Source of the DNA: Torpedo marmorata
Lineage: Eukaryota
Length of the DNA: 64,000 bases
Reading direction: 5' to 3'
Assembly (NCBI GenBank): GCA_977017645.1
Contig: OZ360247.1
Span: 41,354,001 to 41,418,000 of the forward strand
How positions within the stretch are numbered: position 1 is the stretch's first letter; each line of letters opens with the position of its first letter. Below the pieces are notes generated by a model. The model was not told the DNA's origin and ran no database searches. It saw nothing but the letters and a program-made list of their open reading frames with translations. Shown here piece after piece: positions 5,467-62,572 of the stretch. The translations under genes and the position numbers were made by a program.

Positions 5467-6910
5467 TGAGTGGTAATAACTGGAAATAAATGTGTAAGAT
5501 TTCAGTCAGAAATGTGTCTAATTCCACAGTCACAACCTACCAGCAATTTCCTCTTTCTAAATAGGTAGTCTTCAGTCACAATTCTTTTGTCAACTTTCGT
5601 CAGCATGGTTTGATCCTATAATCTTTGTCCATTTCAAAAATGTTATTGTCACGTACAAAACAAAACCTCTTGTAGCTTACTGCCAATTATAAGTAATTGT
5701 TGTAATTGCAATTGGACTAAATGTTCCCACTATTTTAATAAATAGCCATTATAAGTTAGCACCAGTGTCTTCACCCTAATTTTAATGTTTTCCTTTAAAG
5801 TACTCATAACTGGAATAGGAACACTGCTATAACATCAATGGCAGATTTAAACTGAAAATGGTTCTGTACCTTTTTCTCTAAAAGCCCCCAGTATAAATAC
5901 AATTTGCATCACAGGGTTAAAAGTTATGTGGCCTGGAATATGTTATTACCTTGTATCTTGATACGTGCCAGTTTGCACTGAGCCATGTCATCCAACCACT
6001 GTAACCAGCACAACTGGAGGATCTGTAGTTTGCCTTTATTCGTTGTATTTATTATCTTCCTTTGATACAATTTGTGATGTAAGGACCTGATTTTTGCCTA
6101 AATGGCGGATGCAAAGACATCTTTCCAGCATGTATACACTCGCATTGAGATTAAGTGGTCTTCAGAAATGTTTATTTGTGTAGTTACATGTATTTTGTTG
6201 TATTGTGCTATAGAAGTAAGACTTAAAAGTAGCATCAGGAATTAACATTCACAAGATGATTTTGACTGGTTATTAATATAAATGAGTCTGCGCTAAAATT
6301 ATTTCTCTTCCCGCCCACCCCACCACCTCCCACCCCCTTCTTCGCAGCCCACACTGTATGTACCTACAATCCTCTGAAAGCTTTTGCTGGTTTTGCTGAA
6401 GTGGATAATGGTTCATCTGATATGTAGAATACCAGTGATGCCTGTGTGTACAATATAGTCAATCAACCACACATTCAAGAGAGTGTCAGTGGCAATATAC
6501 AAAGTTATCCATTTCATTGGTGCAGGATGAACACATTTACTTGCTCTTTCTTTAAAAAAAAGTAATTTTAATTTGTATTTTATTCTGGTAGAAAAATTAT
6601 TAACTTCATTTAAACTGAAAACAGTATGATGGCATTATGCCCTTTGTAGATGGTGTTGCTGAATTGCATTTAACAGCATTGAATTGTAGAAAAAAATCAA
6701 AAGAAGCTGGTCTATTGCAAAATGCATAATTATTGTGTGATAAGTATGAGATTGAGCAAAAGATACTTGAACAGGAATGCTGTACCTTCAATTAGTTACT
6801 TGATTGTAAACTGCTACTTTTATGTGTTCTCATAGTTATTATCAAAATTCCAAATGTAATAAACTTGCTGATTTTTCAGGTAACAAGAATTTTGTTTCTT
6901 CTAATTGCAG

Positions 6911-8140
6911 CTAAAGATTGAAAATATTTCTATCTTCCCTTTGGTTGGGTACCCTCTACAGGAGAATTTCTATTTCCGTTATACATGTTTGATGGACAAA
7001 CAGAACAGCGCATGTTTGAGCCTCACCTCTGATGACTACATTGTAGTGATAAAATGGAAGCAGTCATTTATTTCTAACAAAATAGTGCTGACTGTTTTCA
7101 GTTGGATCTTTCTATTACTCTTCACACAGTCCAAATGGTTGCAGGAATTTGAACTTATTACTGTGACCTTAACATTGGAAACTTTCAGTCAGATCCTAGT
7201 CTTTATTTATACATCTAAACTAAATGTGAATGCATGTGATGTACAAAAGGTGGTAAACATAGTTAAGGACCTTCAAATGAATAACGCTGTCAACTCTTGC
7301 AAGAATCTGATCGACAACTGTTCTTCATATGTTGCTGGAATGGCCCAAGAGGGAAAACAGTGCTCCCAGATCCCTCCTCAATTTTATGGTAATGTCGACA
7401 GAGAACTTGATTTATCAACCAAGATTTGTCCCAGAGAAGGGAATAAATCCTATCTGGTGAAAGTTGAGGATGCAATGGCAAAACGACACTTGAAAGCAAG
7501 AGATCGAGCATATTATGAAGAGAGTAAAGGAGTTGAAAATGTTCATGAAATGGAAGGAGATGCAGAAAATTCTGACTCAGATGACCAAGGATCTTATAAC
7601 CGTGATCAAATTATTGTTGAAGTGAACCTTAATAATCAGACTTTACATGTGTCTAAAGGGACAGAAGGTGTAACTTCACAGTCTGAAAAATCAACTGTGG
7701 TTGACTCGAGTGATGGAGAGAATGATGAAGGGGATGATGATTTGGAAGATGAGGACGAGGATGACGAATTTGACATAGAAGATGGGCAAGATGATGAAGA
7801 AATAGAAGAAACCAAATACAGAAAACCTAAGGAAATGACTAGGTTGAAAACAACAGAAGCAACTCTTTCAAGGGAAAGTGCAAAGATTCAGCTGCCTGAG
7901 CAGAGAAAGAAAAAAACTAAAATTTCGAAACCTTCAAGCCAGAAAGAAAAGCAGATTGAAGAAAAACAGAATCTCACCTGTGAAAAATGTCCCAGAGTCT
8001 TCAACAATCGTTGGTATCTGGAAAAACACATGACTGTCACTCACAGTCGAATGCAGATATGTGATAAGTGTGGAAAAAAATTTGTGTTGGAAAGCGAACT
8101 TGTTCTTCATCAACAAACTGAGTGTGAAAAGAATATTCAG
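6911..8140 (+). CDS. ZNF652: ZNF652 first coding exon: degenerate BTB-like N-terminal extension, acidic region, zinc fingers 1-2
   Basis: Acceptor ttcttctaattgcag|6911, donor CAG|gtaggc at 8140 (1230 nt, phase 0). Encodes MNNAVNSCKNLIDNC..VAGMAQE..ELDLSTK, DQIIVEVNLNNQTLHVSKG and LTCEKCPRVFNNRWYLEKHM...CEKNIQ, matching ZNF652. In-frame ATGs at 6992 and 7277; the 5' boundary and start codon are inferred. Confidence 0.9.
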
Positions 8141-8749
8141 GTAGGCCACAGCTTTTTGTTATATTCATAAATGATAATGTTTACACATTCAAAGTTAGCA
8201 GATCATTGGGCAGAAATTATAAAATGTGTCATTTCTTTTAGGATCTGCTTCCTTGTTTTTGAGCTTTGCTAGTTTTTCCCCTTGGCAGCATTCACACAAG
8301 TAGAAAAGATACAGCCTGCTGATAATCCAACAATGTTGTTTTAGTTGATTTGGGTGTTCAGGAGTAATGGATTATTTACCTTTTCCATCATCTACTGGCA
8401 GGTGGGATCAGAACCAGTTGTTGCTAACCATTATCTTTCCATTGAGATGAAGTGAATGTCTCCATGGAGTGGAGAATGTATCTGACTTTTTCTGTTGCAT
8501 TGTGCTGTAGTAGATTTAGCATGCTCTGCTTCTTTATGATACAGCGTCTCAAAACCTATTTCATGGTCCTCTTTTTTTTTGTACACTGTTCAAAATTCAA
8601 TAAAAAATTATGGTGATTTACAAAAGGATATTGCCCAAGGTCAGGTTTGTGCAATTATATATGCTACCTATTGTATTTGTGCGTGGGTTGATTTGCCTAG
8701 TCGGCACGCAAAACAAAGCTTTTCACTGCATTTCTGTACATCTGATAAT

Positions 8750-25545: not shown

Positions 25546-25693
25546 TGTGTTTCCTGTGGAAAATGTTTCAAGAAACTGTGGTCTCTGCATGAACATATTA
25601 AAGTTGTCCATGGCTTTGCTGAAAAGAAATTCTCCTGTGAGATTTGTGAGAAGAAGTTCTACACAATGGCTCATGTTCGAAAACATATGGTTG
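25546..25693 (+). CDS. ZNF652: ZNF652 internal coding exon (zinc fingers 3-4)
   Basis: cttag|TGT...GTT G|gtaag, 148 nt: [49 protein letters not shown]. Confidence 0.96.
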
Positions 25694-28870: not shown

Positions 28871-30445
28871 AACAGTGCCTACTAGAATCCCTGAAAAGGC
28901 TGAGGACCCTGTGATATCTGTCTCTGAGGGCAACATCAGAACATCATTCAAGAGGGTGAACCCTTGCAAGGCGTCAGGTCCTGACAGCGTACCTGGCAGG
29001 GTACTGAAAATCTGCGCCAACCAACTAGCCGGAGTGTTCACGTACATTTTCAACCTCTCATTGCGGTAGTGAGAGGTTCCCACCTGCTTCAAAAGGGCAT
29101 CAATCATCCTGGTACCCAAGAAGAGTAGTGTGAACTGCCTCAACGACTACCGCCCAGTAGCACTAACTTCTACTGTGGTGAAATGCTTTGAGAGGCTGGT
29201 CATGGCCAGAATTAACATGTACGTACCTAAGCAAAGATCTGGACCCACTACAATTCACCTATCGTCACAATCGCTCCACAGCAGATGCAATATTGCTGGC
29301 TCTCCACTCAGCTCTGGATCACCTCGAAAACAGCAATTCATACATACGACTGCTCTTCATCAACTACAGCTCGGCCTTCAATACCATTATTCCCTCAGTG
29401 CTGGTCAAGAAGCTACAAACTAGGCCTCTGTACCCCCCTCTGCAACTGGATCCTTGACTTTCTCATCGGAAGACCACAGTCAGTACGAATTGGAAACAAC
29501 GTCTCCTCCTCACTAATTATCAACACAGGCGCACCCCAAGGATGCGTGCTTAGTCCACTGCTCTACTCGTTATACACCCATGACTGTGTGGCCAGGCACA
29601 ATTCCAATGCCATCTCCAAGTTTTCCGATGACACCACATGTGTTGGCAGAATCACAAACGGCAATGAGGAAGCGTACAGGAGGGAGATAAATCAGCTCGT
29701 TGAATGGTGTAACGACAATAACCTTGCGCTCAACGTCAGCAAAACCAAGGAGATGATTGTGGACTTCAGGAGGAAGTCAGGATAACACTTCCCAGTCCTC
29801 ATCGAGGGCTCAGTAGTGGAGAGGGTCAAGAACTTCAAATTCCTGGGTGTCAACATCTCCGAGGATCTGTCCTGGAGCATCCACGTTGATGCAATCAAAA
29901 AGAAGGCTCGCCAGCGGCTATACTTTGTGAGGTGCCTGAGGAGATTCGGTATGTCACCGAAGACTCTCGTAAACTTCTATAGGTATATCTTGGAGAGCAT
30001 TCTGGCTGGTATGGAGGTGCCAACTCTCAGGTCAAGAATAAACTCCAGAGGGTTGTTAACTCGGCCTGTGACATCACAGGCACCAGACTTCACTCCATTG
30101 AGGACATCTACATGAGGCAGTGTCTTAAAAAAGCAGCCTCTGTCCTCAAAGACCCCCACCACCCAGGCCATGCCCTCTTCACTCTGCTACCATCAGGAAA
30201 AAGGTACATGAGCTTAAAGACGAGCACTCAACGGCACAAGGACAGATTCTTCCCCGCTGCCATCAGATTCCTAAATAATCAATGAACCAAAGACACTGCC
30301 TTACTTTTCGCGCACTATTATTTATATATATTTTTTATAGTGATGTCGTAAGGTGGTTATAATGTGAATGCTTGCACTATGATGCTGCCGCAAAACACCG
30401 AATTTCATGACTTGTTCATGACAATAAATTCTGATTCTGAAATTC
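28871..30445 (+). mobile_element. Young 5'-truncated Rex1/Babar LINE (RT), frameshifted
   Basis: [67 protein letters not shown]; tail ACAATAAATTCTGATTCTGA. Confidence 0.93.
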
Positions 30446-33186: not shown

Positions 33187-33360
<174 letters not shown>

Positions 33361-34235: not shown

Positions 34236-37200
34236 GAACATAGAACAATACAGTACAGTACAGGCCCATCGGCCCTCGATGTTGTGCCGACCCATATATT
34301 CCTTCCTAAAAAAAATACTAAACTCTCCCTTCCCTGTAACCCTCTATTTTTCTTTCATCCATGTGTCTGTCTAAGAGTCTCTTAAATGCCCCCAATGTTT
34401 CAGGCTCCACCACCATCCCCGGCAAGGCAGTCCAGGCACCCACAACTCTCTGTGTAAAAAAATTAAAAAAATAAAAACTTACCCGATGTCTCCCCTAAAC
34501 ATCCCTCCCTTAACTTTGCACTTATGTCCTCTGGTGTTTGCTGATCCTGCCCTGGGAAACAGGTATTGGCTGTCCAACCTATCTATGCCTCTCATAATCT
34601 TGTAGACCTCTATCAAGTCTCCTCTCATCCTTCTACGCTTCAAAGAGAAAAGTCCCAGTTCTACTAACCTTGCCTCATAAGACTGGTTTTCCAATCCAGG
34701 CAACATCCTGGTAAATCTCCTCTGCACCCTCTCCATAGCTTCCACATCCTTCCTATAATGAGGTGACCAGAGATTTGTAGAGTAGCAATATGACCTCTCT
34801 ACTCCTGAATTCAATCCTCCTATTAATGAAGTCCAGCATCCCATAGGCCTTTTTATTTATTTATTTATTTTTTTTAATTTAAATTTTTAAATCACAAAAT
34901 ACATAGAATAAAATCCATATATTTGAAAATACATGTGATATACATTTTCTCCCCCCCTTCCCACCCTCCCCTCCCTAACCCCTACATCCCCACTACTCTA
35001 AAAAAAATATATATAAAAAAATATATAGTAAAAGAGAAAAATAAAAAAGAAAGATAGAAAAATAGAGTGAGGAGAAAACAAGCTACAAACTAATTCTACC
35101 ATAGAGGTTATTTTCGCCAGTGGATCCGATATCCAGAGAATTTAAATTGTCAAATAATAACCATTCCCTGTCAATCAAATCCACCAGCGTTTCCCTCTTA
35201 ATCTGCTGTATATACATTTCCTCCTCAACTAGAATAAAAGACAGAAATAGAAAAAAGAAAAACTCCCCTATAAAAAACACTGGTCTTCTACTCCCAGTGT
35301 TACCCCCCTCCATTGACCATAGGCCTTCTTAACTATCCTATCAACCTGTGCGGCGACCTTGAGGGATGTATGGATTTGAACCCCAAGGTCCCTCTGTTCA
35401 TCCACACTCTTAAGTAACCGACCATTAACCCTTGTACTCAGGCTTCTGGTTTGTCCTTCCAAAATGCATCACCTCACACTTATCCGGATTGAACTCCATC
35501 TGCCACTTTTCTGCCTAACTCTGCATCCTGTCTATATCCTCTTGTAACCTTCGACAACCTTCAGCTCCATCCACAACTCCTCCAACCTTCGTGTCATCCG
35601 CAAACATACTGACCCATCCTTCCGCCTCTTCATCCAGGTCATTTATAAAAATCACAAAGAGCAGGGGTCCCAGAACAGATCCCTGCGGCACTCCACTAGT
35701 CACCGACCTCCAGGCTTTCCTTCCTACTTTCCTTCCTCTACTACTCTCTGCTTTCTTCCTTCAAGCCAATTTTTTATCCACACAGCCAAGGTTCCACTGA
35801 TCCCATGCCTCATGACTTTCTGGATGAGTCTCTTGTGGGGGACCTTGTCAAATGCCTTGTTAAAATCCATGTAGACCACATCTACCGCCCTACCCTCATC
35901 AATTTCTTTTGTTACCTCCTCAAAAAACTCAATTAGACTCGTGAGGCACGACCTTCCCTTCACAAAGCCATGCTGACTATCCTTGAGTAGACTGTACTTC
36001 TCCAAATGCTCATAGATCCTATCCTTAAGAATTCTCTCCATTAGTTTGCACACCACTGATGCAAGACTCACCGGTCTATAATTCCCAGAATTCTCCCTTT
36101 TATCTTTTTTAAACAAGGGGACTACATTTGCCATTCTCCAATCCTCCGGCACATCCCCTGCGGCCAAAGAGGATTCAAAGATCATCGCTACTGCCCCAGC
36201 TATCTCTTCTCTCACTTCCCACAACAGCCTGGGATATATCGCGTCCGGCCCCGGGGACTTATCAATCTTGATGTTTTTAAGAAGATCCAACACTTCCACT
36301 TCCTTGATCTCCACATTGTCCAGCACACAGGCCTGTTCAATTTAGGACCTCCCCAACCTCCTCTGCTTCCAGGCACATGTTGCCTCCTTTATCCTTCAGC
36401 GGCCCCACCTTCATTCTCGTCATCCTTCTGTTCTTCACATACGCATAGAACGCCTTGGGGTTCTCCTTAATTCTACATGCCAAGGCCTTCTCATGCCCCC
36501 TTCGAGCTCTCCTAAGTCCTTTCTTAAGCTCCTTCCTGGCTACCATATACTTTTCATGAGCTCTTCCTGTTTCCTGCTTCCTATATCTAATGTCTGCTTC
36601 CTTCTTCCTCTTGACTATTTGCCTGACCTGTTTCTTCAGCCACGGTTCCCTTTTCCAACCATCTTTTCCTTGTCCCAGTGGGACAAACCTATCTTGAACC
36701 CTGCACAAGTGGTCCCTAAACTTCCTCCACATTACTTCTATGCTTTCACCCTTAAACATCTGTTTCCAATTTACTCTCGTTCCTGCCTCATCCCTTCATA
36801 ATTAGCCCTTCCCCAATTAAGCACTTTCCCATTTTGACTGTTTTTATCCTTTTCCATAGCTATGTTGAAGCTAAGGGAGTTGTGGTCACTCTCACCAAAA
36901 TGCTCCCCCACTGAGAAGTCCGCCACCTGACCAGGTTCATTCCCCAGAACCAGATCCAATATGACCTCTCCTCTCGTCGGCCGGTCCACATACTGTGTCA
37001 GGAATCCTTCTTGAACACACCTGACAAATTCAGCCCCATCTATCCCTCTTGCAGTCAGTAGGTGCCAGTCAATATTAGGGAAGTTGAAATCACCCATAAC
37101 TACAACCCTGCATTTCCCACACCATTCCAAAATCTGCCTGCTTATCTGCTCCTCGGTATCCCGAGGGCTATTTGTGGGCCTATAGACTACTCCCAGCACA

Positions 37201-37460
37201 GTGATAGCTCCGTTCTTATTTCTGACTTCCAACCACACCGACTCAGTGACAATCCCTCTGCAGCGCCCTCCTTTTCTATAGCCGTGATGCTATCCCTGAC
37301 CAGTAATGCTACTCCCCCCCCCTCCCCCTTTTCCACCTCCCATCCTATTTTTTTTTAAACACCTAAACCCTGGTACCTGCATCAGCCAATCTTGCCCTTC
37401 CTCCAGCCAAGTTTTAGTGACGGCCACAACATCGTAGTTCCACATACTGATTCATGCTCC
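34236..37460 (-). mobile_element. CR1 LINE, 5'-truncated, APE endonuclease and RT, frameshifted
   Basis: VVVMGDFNFPNIDW, ILDLVLGN, SDHN (EN); [55 protein letters not shown] (RT). Confidence 0.95.
34852..35316 (-). mobile_element. L1-like 3' UTR fragment inserted in CR1
   Basis: 11-bp TSD CCATAGGCCTT (34841-34851, 35317-35327), minus-strand (TAAA)n tail and G-rich tract. Confidence 0.78.
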
Positions 37461-39423: not shown

Positions 39424-39609
<186 letters not shown>

Positions 39610-43286: not shown

Positions 43287-43898
<612 letters not shown>

Positions 43899-47990: not shown

Positions 47991-49295
47991 GGTGAATTTC
48001 TTTCATTCTAATGCTGTTGATCAAAGTGGCTCTGATGGCATAGGACATGTCAATACGTTTGAAAATCATCTTTACTAGCAGGGTGCAATCAAATGTAAGT
48101 GCTAATAATGCAGAGGTTCAAAGTTCCTCTTTGATCAGATGTTATACAGCTTAATAAAATTTGCACTTTAAAGTGTCTTGTATTTATTGTCTCTTGTAAA
48201 GAAGTATTGCATTTTATTTACAGTATTGACAGTATATTTCTTTATAGTTTCTAGTTATCCTGATTCATTTTCATGGTGAAAATTTAAAACTCAAATCCTT
48301 TTTCTGATTGGGGCTTGTTTCACTTCTCAACTCACAAAATAATCTTGCAGGGAATAATTTTTTTAATGATTCATACTGGTAAATAGTAATTAGATGGTTC
48401 AAGCATCAGTGGAAATAGCATCCATTTCACTTCAGTTGGTGTTGAAATTCTCCAGGAAAATAGCAGCATTAGCCCCTACTAGAAAATTGAGATGGTATCA
48501 CTGGCTCAGAACACCAAGAATTCAAAATAATTCTCAATGGTTCTTTTAGGAACAACCATTTCAATTTTTATTATTTGGAATTGATATGTAAACTGCTCCA
48601 TTTCCTTCTAGTCCATTAATGAATATCCCCACCTGATGTATGATTTCTCTGAAGCTCCTTTGTGTACATAGAATCACAATCATAGCATATGCCATATAAA
48701 TAAGCCATTTTGCCCAGCATCCTTACTGCTGGTTGTGCACCATTCAAGCATCATCTAAAACTATTAATGTGCCCATCTATTTCCTTCTCTTTTACATGCT
48801 TGTCCCTTTATATGCATGTATACCATCTGCCTCAACCCCTCCCTATGTTACTGAGATCCCCATTCTGGCCACTTTTTGGGTAAATGAATTTCTTCTGCAT
48901 TCTCAATTGAATTATTTAATGACTATTTTGTATTGATCTCTACTTATGCACTTCCCCACAAGTGGAAAGGTTTTTGTTGTATCCACTCCTACAAAGCCTT
49001 TTATAACTTTAAATACCATTATTATGTCATCCCTGAAACTTATTTTTAAACCAAGGGGAGGAGGACACATCTGTTCATTCCCTTCTAAAGTGTATTCCAT
49101 CACATGTTCGTATCATCTATATATGCATTGTCTACACACCTTCCATTGTCTGTATTTTTTTTTAAATGGTGATTCGAAGTGTATGCATTACCCTATGTGT
49201 GTTCCTACCTCGGTTCAGTATAGACTGAGCAGAAGTTCCCTACATTTCAGTTCCTTTTAGAATTGCTAGGTTTACTTTTATTGTGAATATGCTCA

Positions 49296-49492
49296 TTTGT
49301 GGAGCAACATTAACTGATCAATATGCATGTACTGTGACATCTCTTTGTGGAGCAACATTAACTGATCAATATGCATGTACTGTGAGATCTCTTTGTGGAG
49401 CAACATTAACTGATCAATATGCATGTACTGTGAGATCTCTTTGTGGAGCAACATTAACTGATCAATATGCATGTACTGTGAGATCTCTTTGT
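49296..49492. repeat. 48-bp minisatellite, four copies plus 5 bp, inside an old CR1 relic
   Basis: Unit TTTGTGGAGCAACATTAACTGATCAATATGCATGTACTGTGAGATCTC; one mismatch in copy 1. Confidence 0.97.
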
Positions 49493-49894
49493 TCCTCTAC
49501 TCCATTTTCCATGCAAAAAGTAATTTTGTTGTTCTTCCTATTAAAATGTATCAGTTTAGAACTTCTTTTGCTAATTATTTGCCCACTGAAAGTTTATCAA
49601 ACGCCTGCTATAATTTGTCACATCATTGACTTTCATCTTTTTTCCTCTGGGATTTGACTTAATCTGCAAGTTTAGAAATTACATTCTTTACTTCACCAAC
49701 TATTCATTAAATTGGAGGCCGCTGTGGTCCCCGTGTTAGTCCTTGTGAAACGTCACTACTCAGCTTCTTTCACTTTGAATAGCTTCCTTTCACTCCCACT
49801 CTATGCTTGTTCATCTTTAACCCAGATAGCAGTCAATCCCCTTGTCTCCTGACCTTGCATTCTCTGACCTCATTCATTGGTTTCTTATGAAATG

Positions 49895-51574: not shown

Positions 51575-53250
51575 TTGCAACTTATTTTGCATCAGTCTTC
51601 ACTGTGAAAGACATTAGCAATGTGCCGATTGTCCAAGGGTATCAGAAAAGTTAAGTGAGTGCAGTTACTATTACAAGGGAGAATGTGCTCAGAAAGCTGA
51701 ATGGGACTCTAAGGGTAGATAAATCTCCCAGACCAGATAGATTGCACCCTTGGGTTCTGAAAGAAGTAACTGCAGAGATTGTGGAGGCATTGGTAATGAT
51801 CTTTCAGGAATCAATAGGTTCTGGCATGGTTTCAGAGGACTGGAAAATTGCAAATGTCATTCCACTATTCAAGAAGGGAGGGAGACAGCAGAAAGGAAAC
51901 TATAGACCGGTTAGCCAGACATCAGTGGTTGGGAAGATGTTGGAGTCAATTGTCAAGGATGAGGTTACGGAGTACTTAGAGGCACTTGACAAGATAGACC
52001 AAAGCCAGCATGGTTTCCTTAAGGGAAAATCTTGCTTGATAAACCTATTGGAATTGTTTGAGGAAGTGACAAGCAGCCAAGATAAAGGAGAGGCGGTGGA
52101 TTTTCAGAAGGTCTTTAACAAGATGCAGCACATGAGGCTACTTAAGATAAGAGCCCATGGTATAACAGGAAACATACTAGCATAGGTAGAGCATTGGCTG
52201 ATTGTGAGGAAGCAGAGATTGGAATACAGGGATCATGTTCTGGTTGGTTGCTAGTGGTGTGCTACAGGAGTTGGTGTATGGCCGCTTTTTATGTTGTTTA
52301 TCAGTGATTTGGATTATGGAATGAATGGCTTTGTGGCCAAGTTTGCAGATGATATGAAGATAGGTGGAGGAGCAAGTAGTGTTGAGGAAACAGGGAGGGT
52401 GCAGAAGAACTTAGATTAGGAGAATGGGCAGAGAAGTGGCAAATGAAATACAATGTTGGAAAGTGTTCGGTCGTGCACTTTGGTAGAAGAAATAAACGGA
52501 CAGACTATTTTGTAAATGGGGAGAAAATTGAAAATTCCCAGATGCAAAGGGACTTGAGAGGCCTCGTGCAGGATACTCTGAAGGTAAACTTAGGTTGAGT
52601 TGGTGGTGAAGAAGGCAAATGCAATGCTGGAATTTATTTCAAGAGGAATAGCATATAAGAGCAGGGATGTGATGTTGAGGATTTATAAGACCTCACAGAG
52701 TATTGTGAGTAATTTTTGGCTCCTCATTTAAGAATGGGTGTGTTGACATTGGAGAGGGTTCAGAGGAGGTTCACAAGGATGATTCAGGGAATGAAAGAGT
52801 TATGTGAGGAATGTTTGACAGCTCTTAGCCTGAATTAATTGGAAATTAGGAGAATGCAGGGGACCTCATTGAAACATTTCGAATGTGGAAAGGCATGGAG
52901 AGAGTAGATGTAGAATAGTTGTTTCCCATGCTGGGAGAGTCTAGGTCAAGAGCGCGCAACTTCAGGATTGAAGGGCATCCACTTACAACAGAGATTCTGA
53001 GAAATTTCTTTAGCCAGAGGGTGGTGAATCTCTGGAATTTGTTGCCACAGGTGATTGTGGAGGCCAAGTCATTGGGTATATTTAAGGCAGAGATTGATTG
53101 GTTCTTGATTAGCCAGGGCATCAAAGGTTATGGGGAGAAGGCTGAGCAGTGGCACTGAGTGGGAGAATGGATCAGCTCATAATTGAATGGCTGGACAGAC
53201 TCAATGGGCTGAATAGCCTATTTCTGCTCTTGTGTCTTATGGTCTTATAT
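51575..53250 (+). mobile_element. CR1 LINE 3' half (RT), decayed
   Basis: DWKIANVIPLFKKG, NYRPVS, SQHGFLKGKSCL, KFADD, FSQRVVNLWN; TCTTATGGTCTTAT tail. Confidence 0.92.
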
Positions 53251-56251: not shown

Positions 56252-59200
56252 CTTTCTTTTAATAATATTTTTATTGAATTTTACAAGGATAAACAAAGCA
56301 GGAGGAAGTCAGGAGAACACGACCCAGTCCTCATCGAAGGCTCAGTAGTGGAGAGGGTCAAGAACTTCAAATTCTCGGGTGTCAACATCTCCGAGGATCT
56401 GTCCTGGAGCCTCCACATTGATGAAATCACAAAGAAGGCTCGCCAGCAGCTATACTTTGTGAGGTGTCTGATGAGATTCAGTATGTCTCTGAAGACTCTC
56501 GTAAACTTCTACAGGTGTACCGTGGAGAGCATTCTGGCTGGTTGCATCACTGCCTGGTATGGAGGCGCCAACTCTCAGGACAAGAATAAACTCCAGAGCA
56601 TTGTTAACTCGGCCTGTGACATCACAGGCACCAGACGTCACTCCATCGAGGACATCTACACAAGGCGGTTGTCTTAAAAAAGCAGCCTCTGTCCTCAAAG
56701 ACCCCCTCCACCCAGGCCATGCCCTCTTCACTCTGCTTCCATCGGGAAAAAGGTACAGGAGCCTAAAGACGAGCACTCAACGGCACAAGGACAGCTTCTT
56801 CCCCGCTGCCATCAGATTCCTGAATAATCAATGAACCAAAGACACTGCCTTACTTTTCGTGCACTATTATTTATATTTTTTTTATAGTAATGTCGTAAGA
56901 TGGTTATAATATGAATGTTTGCACTATGATGGTGCCGCAAAACACCGAATTTCATGACTTGTTCATGACAATAAATTCTGATTCTGATATACAGAAAATT
57001 TGTAAAGTACACAACATAGATGTCAAAAAGTAAAGAACACAACAAGATTGTCAAACTTATAAAGCACATCCATGTTATACAAGCACAATTTATAAGTTTA
57101 TCCCAAAAAGCCCTCAACTCTTTAGCCCCATCTATAAACCAGAATTTTATATTTAAAAGTGTGTTTCGTTGCTGGAGTAACACATTAATTTGCTGGAAGT
57201 CGGGTTTTATATTTAGAAAAGAAAAAAGGAAAAGAGAAAAAATGAATGAAAAAAAAGTTTTTTTTAACTGAGGTTCTGAAAATAATTCAGGAAAGGTCCC
57301 CACACCATTTGAAACTTTTTGTTTGTATTACTAATTGAATAGTGAATCTTTTCTAGATTTAAACAAGACATAATATCCCTCAGCCACTGAGCGTCGGTGG
57401 GCGGGGCAGCATCTCTCCATTTTTTTAATACCGCACATCTAGCCAAAGGAGAGGCGAAGGACAGAGTGCGACATTTGATTGGAGTTAAACAAACATCGTG
57501 TTCTCCAGTGGTACAAAAAAGGGCAACCAAAGGGTTGGGTTCCAGATTTAAATTAAGGATTAGGGACAAGGTTTGGAACACATCCCTCCAGTATTTTTCA
57601 AGGCTAGGACACGTCCAGAACATGTGAATAAGGAAAGCTTCACCTCTCCTACATTTGTCACAACAAGAATCCACATTTGAGTAAATACGAGATAATTTGA
57701 CTTTGGGCATATGAGCCCTATGCACAACTTTAAATTACAACAGACAGTGACGGGCACAGAGGGAAGAAGAATTAACCAACTTAAAAATTAAATCCCAAAC
57801 CTCATCTGACAGTGAAAGGTTTAAGTCCTGTTCCCAGGCAGTTTTGATTTTATCAAGAGGGGCACGTCTTAAACCTGCCAACTTATCATAGATAACAGAT
57901 ATTAAACCTTTGCGTGAGGGTCGTAAACTAAGAAACACATCAACAATATTCATACCAGATATCCCAGGGACGTTTGGTAACTGAGAGTGGAGAAAATGCC
58001 TGATTTGCAGATATCTGAAAAAATAACTATTTGGCAGATTGAATTTTTCAGAAAGTTGTTCAAATTATGATAAAAAAGCTCAATACCCATTCTATACCAT
58101 ACTTGAAATGCAGAATCATGTAAAGAAGGTTGGAAGAGATGATTGGATAGAGTAGGACTTGAAAGAGAAAAACCACAAAAACCAAAATGTTTTCTGAACT
58201 GATCCCATACTCTCTCAGTATGCCTGATAACCGGATTATCAATTGATTTATTTAAGGAAAGAGGAAGTGAGAATCCAAGATGTGCTGGAATGGAAAAGTT
58301 TTTAACAGAATTCAACTCCATTGCTACCCATAATGGACAGTCAACTTGGTTATGAAAGTATAACCAAAACGTAAGGTTGCGTATATTGGCCGCCCAGCAG
58401 TAAAATTGGAAATTAGGCAGCACCATGCCTCCATCCCTTTTAGATTTTTGAAGATGAACTTTATTTAGTCGAGGGTGCTTACCCTTCCATATATAGGACG
58501 ATATAACAGAATCTAATGAGTAAAAAAAAAATTAGGAATGAAAGTCGGTATAGACTGGAAAAAAAAATTTAGGCAAAATATTCATTTTGATAGAGTTAAT
58601 TTGGCACACCAGGGATGTAGACGGGTGACCACTGCGTTAGGCACTGTTTCATGTGGTTTAACAGTGAGAATTTTTTCTTTAAAAAGACACGTTTTCTTGT
58701 GACTGTAATACCAAAATAAGTAAATTGATTTTGCACAATCTTAAAAGGAAAGTTAGTATACACTGATGTAAGTTTATTCACAGGGAAAAGTTCACTTTTA
58801 TGTAAATTTAGTTTGTATCCTGAGAACTGACTGAATTGGGTGAGTAATGACAGCATGGGGGGTAGAGAGGTATCAGGGCTTGATATGAAAAGCAAGAGAT
58901 CATCCGCTTAAAGAGAAACTTTATGTTCAACTCCCTCCAAATCCCTGAGATATCCTCACAACTTTGGAACGCGATTGCTAATGGCTCTATGGCCAGATCA
59001 AAAAGTAATGGGCTTAAAGGGCACCCTTGATGGGTTTCCCGTTGGAGATTGAAAGGTTGTGACTGTTGAAAGTTGGTGAGGATTGAAGCAGTAGGGCACA
59101 AGTACAGTAATCTTATCCATGTAATAAAACTTGGTCCAAAATTGAATTTTTCTAAAATCGCAAATAAATACTTACACTCCACACAGTCAAACGCTTTCTC

Positions 59201-62200
59201 CGCATCTAGAGAAAGAACACATTCAGGAACCACATCCGAGGGTGAGTACAAAATATCAAATAGATGACGCACATTAAAATAAGAGTAGCGGTTTTTAATA
59301 AAGCCGGTTTGATCTTCGGATATAATTGATGGTAAAATGTTCTCCAATCTGCGGGCCAAAACGTTAGCCAAAATTTTGATATCAACATTTAATAAAGAGA
59401 TTGGCCTATAGGAGGAGCTCTATGTTGGATCTTTACCTTTCTTTACAGCAAGAATGATACATGCCTCTTTGAATGATGCTGGAAGTTTACCTTGTTTAAA
59501 CGAGTCAGATAGTACAGAACTTAGATGAGATGAAAGCAAAGAAGAGAATGATTTAAAAAATTATGCAGGAAACCCATCAGGACCTGGGGATTTTCCAGAT
59601 TGCAATGAAGAGATAGCTGCAACTATTTCATCTAATCTCTTTTTGTTATCGTGGAAACTGTAGGGATGTTTAAACGATTTAAGAAATTCTCCCATCAAAC
59701 TGTTATCATTTGGAAATTCAGAAGTATGAAGTCAAGAATAGAAATTCCTGAATGTATCATTAATCATAGAGTGATGCGAAGTAACGTTGCCATCATCCAT
59801 TTGATTTTTTGTGATTTGCCGGTTTGCTTCAAATCCTCTCAACTGATTAGCTAACAGCTTACCAGGTTTGTCACCTTGGATATAGAACAAACTCTTACTC
59901 TTCAAAAGTTGACGTTCAATTGGATATGTCGAGAGGAGGTCGAATTTAGTTTGAAGTTCCACTCGCTTTTTATATAGTTCCAGATTTTTAACTTGAGTGT
60001 ATTGTTGATCTATTTCTTTAATTTTATTGATTAATTCTAATCATTCTTTATTGGCCTTCCTTTTCATATTCACTGTATAAGAAATCATCTGCCCCCGAAG
60101 GTAGGCTTTCAAAGCATCCCAAACAATCAGGCCAGAGGTTTCTACTGAGGTATTCGTATTTTTTAAAAAAAGGTAATCTGCTCCTCCATAAATTTCACAA
60201 AGCCATTATCTGACAATAGAGTCAAATTGAAATGCCAGTGTCTTTTTATTTGAGGAAGATCAGGAAAAATCATAGATAATACAACAGGGGCGTGATCTGA
60301 TATCACTATACTTTGATAATCACAAGAGCGGGTCAATGGGATCAGTTGATTGTCAATAAGAAAATAATCAATCCTAGAAAAGGTATGGTGAACATGTGAA
60401 AAGAAAGAATACTCTCTCCTATTTGGATGAAAAAAACGCAACACATCAGAGATACCATAATTTGATAGGAAGGATTGTATAAGTAAGGCAGACTTACTCA
60501 TTATGCCAGGGTTAGGAGAAGATCGATCTAGCACAGGATCTAACCAGCAATTGAAATCCCCACCAAGCACAAGGGAATATCAGCTCAGATCCGGTAAGGA
60601 AGAAAAAAAATGTTCAAAAAACCCCACATCATTCGTGTTAGGGGCATAGACGTTAGCAAAAACTACCATTTTATTATACAATTTCCATGAGACAATGATA
60701 TAACGACCGTTTGAATCTGATATTACATTGTGATGCACAAAAGGAATATTTTGATTAATAAGAATCGAGACCCACCTAGCTTTGGCCTGGAAAGTGGAGT
60801 GAAAATGTTGCCCCCTCCACCGTGCCATGAGGTGAGAATTATCAGAGCTACGAATGTGTGTTTCTTGTAAAAAAAAGCAATTGCTGTTTCAAGTTGCTTA
60901 ATGTGTGAGAACACTTTCCTTCTTTTAACAGGGTGATTAAGACCCTTGACATTCCAGCTGATGAACTTTAAAAGGCTATCCATTATCCCTGGTCGAAAAT
61001 GTCGGTTGGTAAGCACAAATGATATCAAACCTCCAGATGTCGGCCTTGAGACAGGAACATAAAACAAATACTAGAATAGAGATAAACCCTGCATAGTCAA
61101 GGTTAGTATAGACTCCTGGAAAAGTAACGACAATGAAACACCCACCCCCCTCCCTCTCCCCACCCCAAACCAAGACAGCTGTCAAAACCCACAGCAGAAA
61201 GCTCTTAAAATACCCATTTCCAACCCAAAAAAATCTTCCTGTCCCACGTATCATCATCTTCAGCTCCATTATTGTTATTCAAAATACATTTAACACTCTC
61301 AAAGCAACATTTAACTTTGTTGGAAGCACAACCATGTAAGAAAAAAAACTAATTCCTCTTAAAATTTCTTAATGTAGTTCTGAAAAGTATACTATAAAAT
61401 AGAAATATAACCTACTACTTTAAAAAAAAGTATAAACTTTCCCGATAATCTTCTCACAGAAACTGAATAGATCACTAAATTTAAGGCAGAGGACTACAGC
61501 CCAAGTGGGTATTTTATCCCATAAAATGTTACTAAGGCAGGGAGGGCCTCGCCACCCGAATACTGTATGACATAGGCTAGAAAAATTAGAAGTAATAATA
61601 GTCAATCAGCCACCAACACCAAACAGACATTTACAATGGGCGCGATGGCGAGGGAAGACCGTATGTATAACTCCGTGCCTCATCGATTGAGGGCAGCCAC
61701 TTATGCCCGCTGGGGAGTGTGATGCGGAGTCGTGCAGGATACAGCAGGGAGGGCTTGAGTCCTCGATTATATAGATCCGACATTACCTCCCGGTACTCGG
61801 CTCATTGATTCAGGACTTCGGGACTGTAATCCTCCACAACCCGGATCTGCTGACCACGGCATTCCAGTTTCCCTCTCTGCCGGGCCTCATGTCCTTTATC
61901 TGATAGCGATGTAGATGGATAATAACCGAACGCGATCTCTGCCCCAGAGCCGGTTTAGGTACTAATGGGCGGTGAGCTCTATCAATCTCCGACGGAGATG
62001 GGAGCATCTCATTCCCAAAAACCTCGCATAGCAAATCAGAGAAGAATTTTGAAGGGTGTCCTCCTTCAATAGATTCCACCAAGCCCAGGATACGTAGGTT
62101 TTGCGGTCTGCTCCGGCCTTCCAGGTCAACGACTTTAGCCATTAGCTTCGAATTACTTTCTCGTAGGTTGGGGCAAACATCCTCTAAATCATTAACACGC

Positions 62201-62572
62201 TGGCTCAGGTCGCCCGAAGTGAGCTCCAGAGATGATAGTTGTTGGCCGTGCTCATCCACTAATTCCCGGACTTGATCGAATTTGATTTCTAGCAAGTTAA
62301 AAGAAGTTTTGAAGTCAGCTGCTAACGCCTGTCTGAGTTGGTTCAGTAGCTTGGAAATAGCCTCTATTGTTAGGCTAGTTGCCGTTTCTTCTTTTTACCC
62401 AGATTTACCACTTTTTGTAGCCATTTTGAGGCAAATACAAATAAAAGAAGAGCAAAATGCAAAATCTGTATTACTTTGGTGTGAAATAAAGAGGTGAAGG
62501 AGTGAAAAAATAGAAAGTAGGCAGGAACTCCTGATCTTTGCTTCTACACCATACTGCTGCCAACCGGAAGTC
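56252..62572 (-). mobile_element. Full-length, decayed L1 (5' UTR, ORF1, long spacer, ORF2, 3' UTR)
   Basis: 15-bp TSD GCCAATTTCTATTTT (56237-56251, 62573-62587) at a TTT/AAAA site; 5' GACTTCCGG; ORF1 from 62424 (DLEGRSR..NLRILGL, EIDRAHR); ORF2 60983-57264 (SWNVKGL, GGDFN, SRIDYFL, SDH, DQTGF, SLDAEKAFD, QGCPLSPLLF, CDKC..HMFWTC); many frameshifts. Confidence 0.95.
56298..56988 (+). mobile_element. Young Rex1/Babar 3' fragment inserted in the L1 3' UTR
   Basis: Nearly identical to 29765-30440, including the ACAATAAATTCTGATTCTGA tail. Confidence 0.93.

Follow-up and report, generated by a model that had tools for sequence, protein, structure and literature searches.

An in-frame BTB remnant in ZNF652 of Torpedo marmorata and other elasmobranchs

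The first large coding exon of ZNF652 in the electric ray Torpedo marmorata begins with a worn but open BTB domain. Within the 64,000 nucleotides analysed here (the window), codons 6911-7318 are uninterrupted and BTB-like, and a C2H2 zinc-finger array follows C-terminally in the same frame. We lean, with modest confidence, towards the reading that ZNF652 here retains its ancestral BTB domain, likely translated, reduced to its core, probably deficient in dimerization and held under weak purifying selection. That the remnant is translated in some form appears highly probable from the conservation of its frame.

Domain loss is usually visible only as a before and an after, while this one family shows four states: the domain is intact in ZBTB47, worn yet still in frame in the ZNF652 of sharks and skates, flipped in frame in that of electric rays, and missing from that of bony vertebrates and perhaps stingrays. 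How the BTB is lost can thus be tested, with a suggested order of dimer arm, then surface, and start codon last. The early jawed-vertebrate ZNF652 would have been a BTB zinc-finger protein, and the start methionine of human ZNF652 would be an internal methionine of the last BTB helices. The remnant may also offer a natural core-only ZBTB-type BTB domain for studies of folding and of dimer quality control. The scope is one gene, with no known link to a phenotype. The elasmobranch remnant is present, uncommented, in RefSeq models and apparently undescribed: a literature search largely outside subscription journals found no report of a BTB domain in ZNF652 or of shark ZNF652, and the accessible portions of PMC3971581 and bioRxiv 10.64898/2026.09.10.750468 do not mention ZNF652.

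Gene model, gene identity and distribution of the remnant

The gene model comprises the following features, all on the forward strand.

6911..8140, +, first large coding exon of ZNF652, with BTB remnant, acidic linker and zinc fingers 1-2 (from the frame and contig ends)
6880..6910, +, 31-nt exon extension from an alternative acceptor (AG 6878-6879; from the sequence and the run X2 contig)
25546..25693, +, zinc-finger exon
33239..33354, +, zinc-finger exon
39448..39592, +, zinc-finger exon
43417..43898, +, final coding exon, with zinc fingers, Pro/His-rich tail and stop
G000:C61:41486280-41486972, +, PHOSPHO1-family gene, outside the window (PF06888 match)

An ORF scan of the window finds the main frame open over 6905-8170, which carries it past the exon's donor at 8140. 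An earlier note on this DNA, made from the sequence alone, had counted 122 stop-free codons between the acceptor at 6911 and the ATG at 7277, with nine out-of-frame ATGs and one in-frame ATG (6992) in that interval, and both counts were reproduced. The acceptor is placed as in ZBTB47, the paralogue in the same genome. The exon chain from 6911 has 706 codons and gives the product lengths predicted in the note, 679 residues from 6992 and 584 from 7277, as well as 563 from 7340. We preferred this second-ranked chain for its exon 3/4 junction (GT..AG), which reproduces the M-V-A-H of Narcine; the top-ranked chain of 701 codons lacks five residues there.

Contigs from three sequencing runs (X1, X2 and X19; presumed RNA or of unknown kind) span the exon. 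The X1 contig aligns from 6910 with 29 letters beyond it, the X19 contig begins at 6911, the X2 contig aligns from 6879 with 27 letters beyond it, and all three depart from the genome sequence at 8140; run X6 gave no coverage of the exon 6911-8140. These ends suggest splicing at 6911, plus an alternative acceptor at 6880. The join of an upstream exon to 6911 is a candidate. The 6880 extension carries a main-frame TAA at 6902-6904, and transcripts using that acceptor would therefore start at 6992 or later. Acceptors at 7102 and 7189 were rejected as main sites because the X1, X2 and X19 contigs continue through both; the note had named these two as examples (as 7101 and 7188, the G of each AG), and the contigs are unbroken there. 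Compared with the window, the aligned length of the X19 contig is 20 short and its distance is +1 at 7009 and at 7106, which suggests one additional base in that run somewhere between 6911 and 7009.

Elsewhere in the window, introns and flanks hold LINE-type retrotransposon fragments (2-844, 29073-30285, 35724-37289, 51655-52185 and 57264-62394), which we take to be ORF1-like, endonuclease and reverse-transcriptase-like LINE frames. A short tandem repeat at 49229-49657, downstream of ZNF652, shows up among the listed ORFs as a recurring peptide.

The proposed homology to the BTB domain of ZBTB47 is borne out. Pfam BTB (PF00651) matches residues 39-136 with 46.9 bits and E 3.5e-12 (cut-off 20.5), and the product from ATG 6992 scores 47.8 bits against the same cut-off. 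ZBTB47 of the same genome is the best other genome match (45% identity over residues 3-138, E 9e-24), the ESM Atlas likewise calls BTB (0.91), and the PDB sequence matches of the segment are BTB chains of BCL6, MIZ1 and PLZF.

The gene itself is ZNF652, as the note had assumed, on the evidence of a tree and of synteny. In a tree of 20 rows built without the BTB sequence, 13 ZNF652 rows fall on one side of a 100/100 branch, the window grouping with elasmobranch and bony-vertebrate ZNF652 and apart from ZBTB47. A PHOSPHO1-family gene lies about 88 kb beyond the ZNF652 stop on the same strand, and the gar model P0117 fuses ZNF652 with a gene of that family. A second PHOSPHO1-family member was seen on contig C39. 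The nearest named protein is ZNF652 of Narcine bancroftii, at 89-90%.

The suggestion that birds and alligator have a ZNF652 with intact BTB was rejected, since the two such proteins tested group with ZBTB47. All 245 ZBTB47-like proteins among the 291 compared carry a BTB domain. P0006, P0136 and many bird records named ZN652 that have an intact BTB are ZBTB47 by tree (the two tested) or by linker score. Misnaming of ZBTB47 as ZNF652 in databases could conceal or mimic a BTB remnant.

The elasmobranch proteins are gene predictions, which show open frames and from which translation is inferred. The remnant is in frame in 11 of the 12 shark and ray species named among the matches listed. The remaining species is Hypanus, whose only available model (isoform X2) is without the remnant and starts at MAQEG. 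The BTB profile scores in 28 of 29 elasmobranch entries versus none of 16 other ZNF652-like entries (291 proteins compared), and Pfam BTB at E 1e-8 is reported in 8 of the 12 remnant-bearing proteins scanned. One elasmobranch cluster was sampled through 15 of its 21 members. When only the linker after the BTB was used as query, the same five clusters came back; they were therefore not selected for the BTB. ZNF652 of chimaera, lamprey and amphioxus was not found among the 23 of 32 matches examined (10 of them named), and the sole Callorhinchus match reads as ZBTB47. The note had seen here an intermediate stage of BTB loss in this lineage; the intermediate position between ZBTB47 and the BTB-less ZNF652 stands, but the stage is elasmobranch-wide rather than confined to one lineage.

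Offsetting deletions and alternative starts

The 5' part of the exon, in which translation may begin at several points, has the following features.

6911..7003, +, homologous to the N-terminal extension of ZBTB47 (region of beta1/alpha1; alignment to ZBTB47)
6985..7032, +, frame +2 ORF of 15 codons, MFDGQTEQRMFEPHL (sequence and protein alignment)
6992..6994, +, first in-exon in-frame AUG, giving a 679-aa product; homologue of the CLMD Met in ZBTB47
7006..7030, +, off-frame stretch of about 8 codons between a 4-nt and a 2-nt deletion (DNA and protein alignment)
7031..7318, +, BTB core remnant, 96 codons (profile match, rates and predicted structure)
7277..7279, +, LQM Met, the bony-vertebrate ZNF652 start, 584 aa, weak context
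7340..7342, +, MAQEG Met, 563 aa, strong context; start of the sole Hypanus model available

In a DNA alignment to ZBTB47 the window lacks 4 nt after 7005 and a further 2 nt at about 7027-7030. The stretch ahead of the first strand, which the note took for eroded, is not a product of point decay: it consists of the roughly eight frameshifted codons (7006-7030) between the two deletions. The note's colinear alignment to ZBTB47 holds up, though as two offsetting frameshifts of different age and not as simple continuity.

The other frame between the deletions is the annotated one elsewhere. The peptide MFDGQTEQRMFEPHL matches the annotated N-terminus of Amblyraja at 15 of 15 residues, and the methionine equivalent to 6985 is the annotated start in ten species (two skates and eight sharks), while in the window the 6985 ORF is a short upstream ORF. 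The same ten species retain the Cys of the ZBTB47 CD motif and therefore have the 4-nt deletion without the 2-nt one; both deletions are found in the window and in Narcine bancroftii. By parsimony, the 4-nt deletion would be older than the divergence of sharks and rays, put at 306 Ma in the accessible part of PMC3692497, and the 2-nt deletion would belong to the electric rays. Assembly error was rejected as the origin of the 2-nt deletion, since Narcine shares it and the X1, X2 and X19 contigs keep the window spacing from 7009 on. One skate protein, P0123, has a frame-changing indel relative to the window just upstream of the 6985 start.

The tally of nine out-of-frame ATGs is correct, but one of them, 6985, is the annotated start in other elasmobranchs. 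The context of 6985 is weak, that of 6992 adequate and that of 7340 strong. Narcine isoform X3 starts at the equivalent of 6992. Between 6992 and the LQM Met lie eight out-of-frame AUGs, one of which (7054) has a strong context. Protein alignments agree with the note that the bony-vertebrate ZNF652 start is the LQM Met of the BTB domain; this residue is Thr in Rhinoraja and Heptranchias (2 of 12 taxa).

The stretch 6911-7003 would be in frame only through an AUG in an upstream exon, and is likely 5' UTR in most elasmobranchs. An upstream-exon AUG at about 41306082 (G000:C61), 47.9 kb before the start of the window, lies in a CpG island six codons before a donor; its N-terminus matches that of Narcine isoform X1, and it would give a product of 712 residues. 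The 200 kb upstream yielded no first exon of the Narcine isoform X2 type (MVWK). Whether both deletions are within translated sequence would depend on use of the upstream-exon AUG; that AUG and AUG 6992 both precede the site of the 4-nt deletion.

It could be proposed that the 2-nt deletion was kept in electric rays since it re-attached the beta1/alpha1 arm through the upstream AUG, the 712-residue form being capable of dimerization. The in-frame AUG in its CpG island, with its match to Narcine isoform X1, would suit this proposal, as would the 29 letters of the X1 contig before 6910 and the gap-free alignment of the first 31 codons to ZBTB47. Against it, window and run X2 differ over 6911-7033 by five non-synonymous and no synonymous changes, run X19 appears to have its extra base between 6911 and 7009, the X2 contig takes the 6880 acceptor and so breaks the upstream frame, and the second half of alpha1 is scrambled, with residues 1-39 predicted at pLDDT below 50. 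We regard such a resurrected dimer as quite improbable. A broader two-step version is unlikely, if less so: the 4-nt deletion (more than about 306 Ma ago) would have left a folded monomeric core, and the later 2-nt deletion would give electric rays a translated long-form BTB. Were this true, the arm would have been disconnected for more than 200 million years and then reassembled, with the intermediate still living.

On the reading we prefer, of an ancestral core-only domain, the 4-nt deletion would have occurred after the ZNF652/ZBTB47 duplication and have been in place by the time of the shark-ray ancestor, uncoupling the beta1/alpha1 dimer arm, and the other-frame AUG at 6985 would have taken over as start. 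In electric rays the further 2-nt deletion would have moved the start to 6992 and brought the upstream-exon AUG back into frame. Ribosomes would initiate ahead of the remnant, so that a stop or frameshift within it would reduce ZNF652 output, because eight out-of-frame AUGs precede the LQM Met, and the frame would in this way be locked. Selection against misfolding would spare the buried core while the surface drifts, and bony vertebrates, perhaps also stingrays, would have escaped through a downstream start.

The pair in the window resembles the compensatory frameshift pairs described by Biba, Klink and Bazykin (2022, PMC8935012). The two deletions here, both non-triplet, are 25 nt apart, sum to 6 nt, have no intervening stops, lie close to the 5' end of the gene and are common to two species. 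In the model of that paper, as far as its accessible text goes, the intermediate is deleterious and unfixed, whereas the uncompensated state of ZNF652 appears to be fixed and extant in ten other species; the intermediate would have survived because the new AUG bypassed the uncompensated state. The pair is thus a rare one whose intermediate can be sampled. The accessible text of PMC8935012 gives 624 candidate genes, six of them stringent cases of compensatory frameshifting, and those 624 could bear on novelty.

Two further observations concern the 5' end of the exon. Third codon positions of 6911-7003 differ from those of ZBTB47 (L002:1495-1587) at 11 of 31 sites, whereas the BTB core has 61 such differences in 96 (Fisher p 0.007), and the last intron bases before 6911 align with ZBTB47 too. 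Nucleotide-level constraint at this exon end in both paralogues is possible.

Constraint on frame and fold

Changes in the core were counted over 12 taxa on an assumed species tree. The 96 columns hold 111 parsimony amino-acid changes and no stops, where 6.4 stops would be expected from the window's own nonsense-to-missense ratio (P 0.002, rising to 0.012 once Hypanus is scored as one stop). When frameshifts are included, the probability of at most one disablement is at most 3e-4, at an assumed rate of one indel per 10-23 substitutions, the low end of which was taken from gaps in run X2 intron pieces. The three core indels, of 3, 1 and 1 codons, are all in frame. When ZBTB47 DNA was allowed to decay neutrally, by substitutions only, until it reached the observed identity, the frame stayed open in 29-52 of 1000 runs.

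These figures bear on whether the remnant is an untranslated fossil, that is, 5' UTR ahead of a start at LQM (7277) or MAQEG (7340), with a frame that is open by chance because elasmobranchs mutate slowly. The strong context of 7340 and the weak contexts upstream would fit a fossil, as would the Hypanus model beginning at MAQEG, the slow chondrichthyan rates reported in the accessible part of PMC3692497, and the fact that two frameshifts did become fixed near the 5' end. The absence of stops among 111 changes, the in-frame indels and the rarity of open frames under neutral decay speak against it, and the LQM Met has been lost twice. 5' UTRs are usually poor in AUGs; out-of-frame AUGs before 7277 (9 in 366 nt) have the same density as in the coding part (21 in 801). 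We consider a fossil improbable.

A translated leader without function, its frame selected and its residues drifting neutrally with no stable domain, is a more serious competitor, although we think it unlikely. Here the question is one of constraint on residues. Core-type positions, defined as the 33 sites that are hydrophobic across eight other BTB domains of the genome, hold 23 of the 111 changes versus 34% expected (p 0.002, and similarly at two other thresholds), while a control of 14 hydrophobic non-core sites holds 26 changes. The rate of change at BTB-core positions is half that at other positions. By group, the core share is 13 of 65 changes in sharks (p 0.01), the only group in which the sparing is significant by itself, 8 of 33 in batoids (p 0.16) and 3 of 8 in the electric-ray pair. 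Asp41 (7031-7033), Lys57 (7079-7081), Ser64 and Tyr100 are invariant in all 12 taxa; Asp41 belongs to CDV and Lys57 to AHK, so that the note's description of both motifs as eroded does not extend to these residues. The BTB-profile score of 56.4 bits far exceeds the 26-29 +/- 8.5 reached by stop-free neutral decay of ZBTB47 DNA at equal identity, where it was attained in 0, 1 and 0 of 400 runs; for four shark sequences, 4-10% of neutral runs attain the observed score. Invariant Asp41 and Lys57, core sparing and profile score all argue against a neutral leader. Between run X2 and the window, non-synonymous core sites differ at 8 of 213, compared with 115 of 1376 in introns (p 0.02), the latter from six low-depth run X2 intron pieces among those listed.

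Other measures fit a neutral leader. The core has a tree length of 1.24 (gamma 5.0), against 0.70 and 1.53 for the linkers and 0.11 for the fingers, so that its rate is even across sites and closer to that of the fast linker than of the slow one; shark and gar, by comparison, share 94% identity in the BTB of ZBTB47. Window and run X2 differ by eight non-synonymous and three synonymous changes in the core (pN/pS 0.74-1.0, near 1) and by ten and four in the linker, counts that draw on 30 of 54 differences (up to 7603), a range covering all 23 listed residue differences to P0122. In electric rays alone, sequence constraint beyond the frame is not significant. By BLOSUM62, mismatches in the remnant are no more conservative than under neutral decay, and at core sites the hydrophobic class is lost at the expected frequency (9 of 23 changes). 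Synonymous sites are saturated between the paralogues (pS 0.86), which makes ZBTB47 unusable for dN/dS. As to the Narcine lineage, P0122 has three changes from the window in zinc fingers 1-2 and flanks (7960-8140), at 95% versus 97-100%, at positions nearly invariant among the window, skates and most sharks, a hint that ZNF652 may have evolved faster there.

Structure prediction gives a similarly divided picture. With the 12 remnants alone as alignment, AlphaFold2 returned pLDDT 40 and no BTB fold, again as a neutral leader would have it. With a 55-row alignment that added ZBTB47s and other BTBs, residues 40-138 took the order B1-B2-A1-A2-B3-A3-A4-A5 (block pLDDT 59-75, mean 58, pTM 0.51; residues 1-39 below 50), and the model matches BCL6 and PLZF structures at E of about 1e-7 and TM of about 0.6. 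Since it leans on intact homologues, we take the model to indicate compatibility with a BTB fold rather than folding. A prediction of the complex between the ZBTB47 BTB and the remnant, run without alignments or controls, scored 0.01, which speaks neither for nor against pairing. The dimer deficiency that we propose is deduced from the predicted products of ten species and from the 679-residue form, none of which includes beta1/alpha1.

The A1-A2 stretch (7067-7123) has a best 19-residue hydropathy of 1.64-2.03 in all 12 taxa, versus 1.09 in ZBTB47. It could be imagined as a neofunctionalised degron or a membrane- or chaperone-binding patch that tunes ZNF652 dose. AT-biased drift would by itself favour hydrophobic codons, however, and the stretch fits BTB helices in the model, and we find such a new function hardly credible.

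Comparison with ZBTB47, bony-vertebrate ZNF652 and other BTB domains

ZBTB47 (ZNF651) resembles ZNF652 in acceptor position, colinear BTB, linker motif and zinc-finger array, and both are among the partners of MTG16 (as given in the accessible text of PMC5735743, with the alias in that of PMC9468604). The two differ in the state of the domain. Across jawed vertebrates the BTB of ZBTB47 keeps 86-94% identity and an intact AHK signature. The ZNF652 remnant shares 44-57% identity with that domain, no longer has the signature and bears two deletions in the alpha1 region.

The ZNF652 of bony vertebrates (squirrel, duck, lizard, coelacanth and gar) forms one clade with the window gene (100/100), and a PHOSPHO1-family gene lies downstream, as in the window and as the fused gar model has it. 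In contrast to the elasmobranch gene, the BTB is found in none of 16 of these proteins, most of which begin with the Met equivalent to that of LQM or with MAQE.

The remnant is best likened to a truncated BTB of the ZBTB47 type, and can be placed outside the canonical BTB zinc-finger class because it lacks both the class signature and the long-form arm. The AH[RK]xVLAA signature (B2-A1), as quoted in the accessible text of PMC1257465, is absent, the window reading SNKIVLTV, and its His is replaced by Asn or Ile in 12 of 12 taxa. The long-form beta1/alpha1 extension is missing from products that start at the 6985 equivalent or at 6992; it occurs only in the possible 712-residue form, with about eight codons off frame and pLDDT below 50.

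Compared with the long-form BTB domains of BCL6, PLZF and MIZ1, the remnant has a like predicted core topology and retains the Asp and Lys of the charged pocket, which PMC1257465 and PMC9468604, in their accessible parts, place at the start of B1 (Asp) and of A1 (Lys/Arg). Beta1 and most of alpha1 of those domains, the strand-exchanged dimer interface according to the same part of PMC1257465, would lie outside the predicted remnant product in ten taxa and in the 679-residue form, and would be partly scrambled in the 712-residue form.
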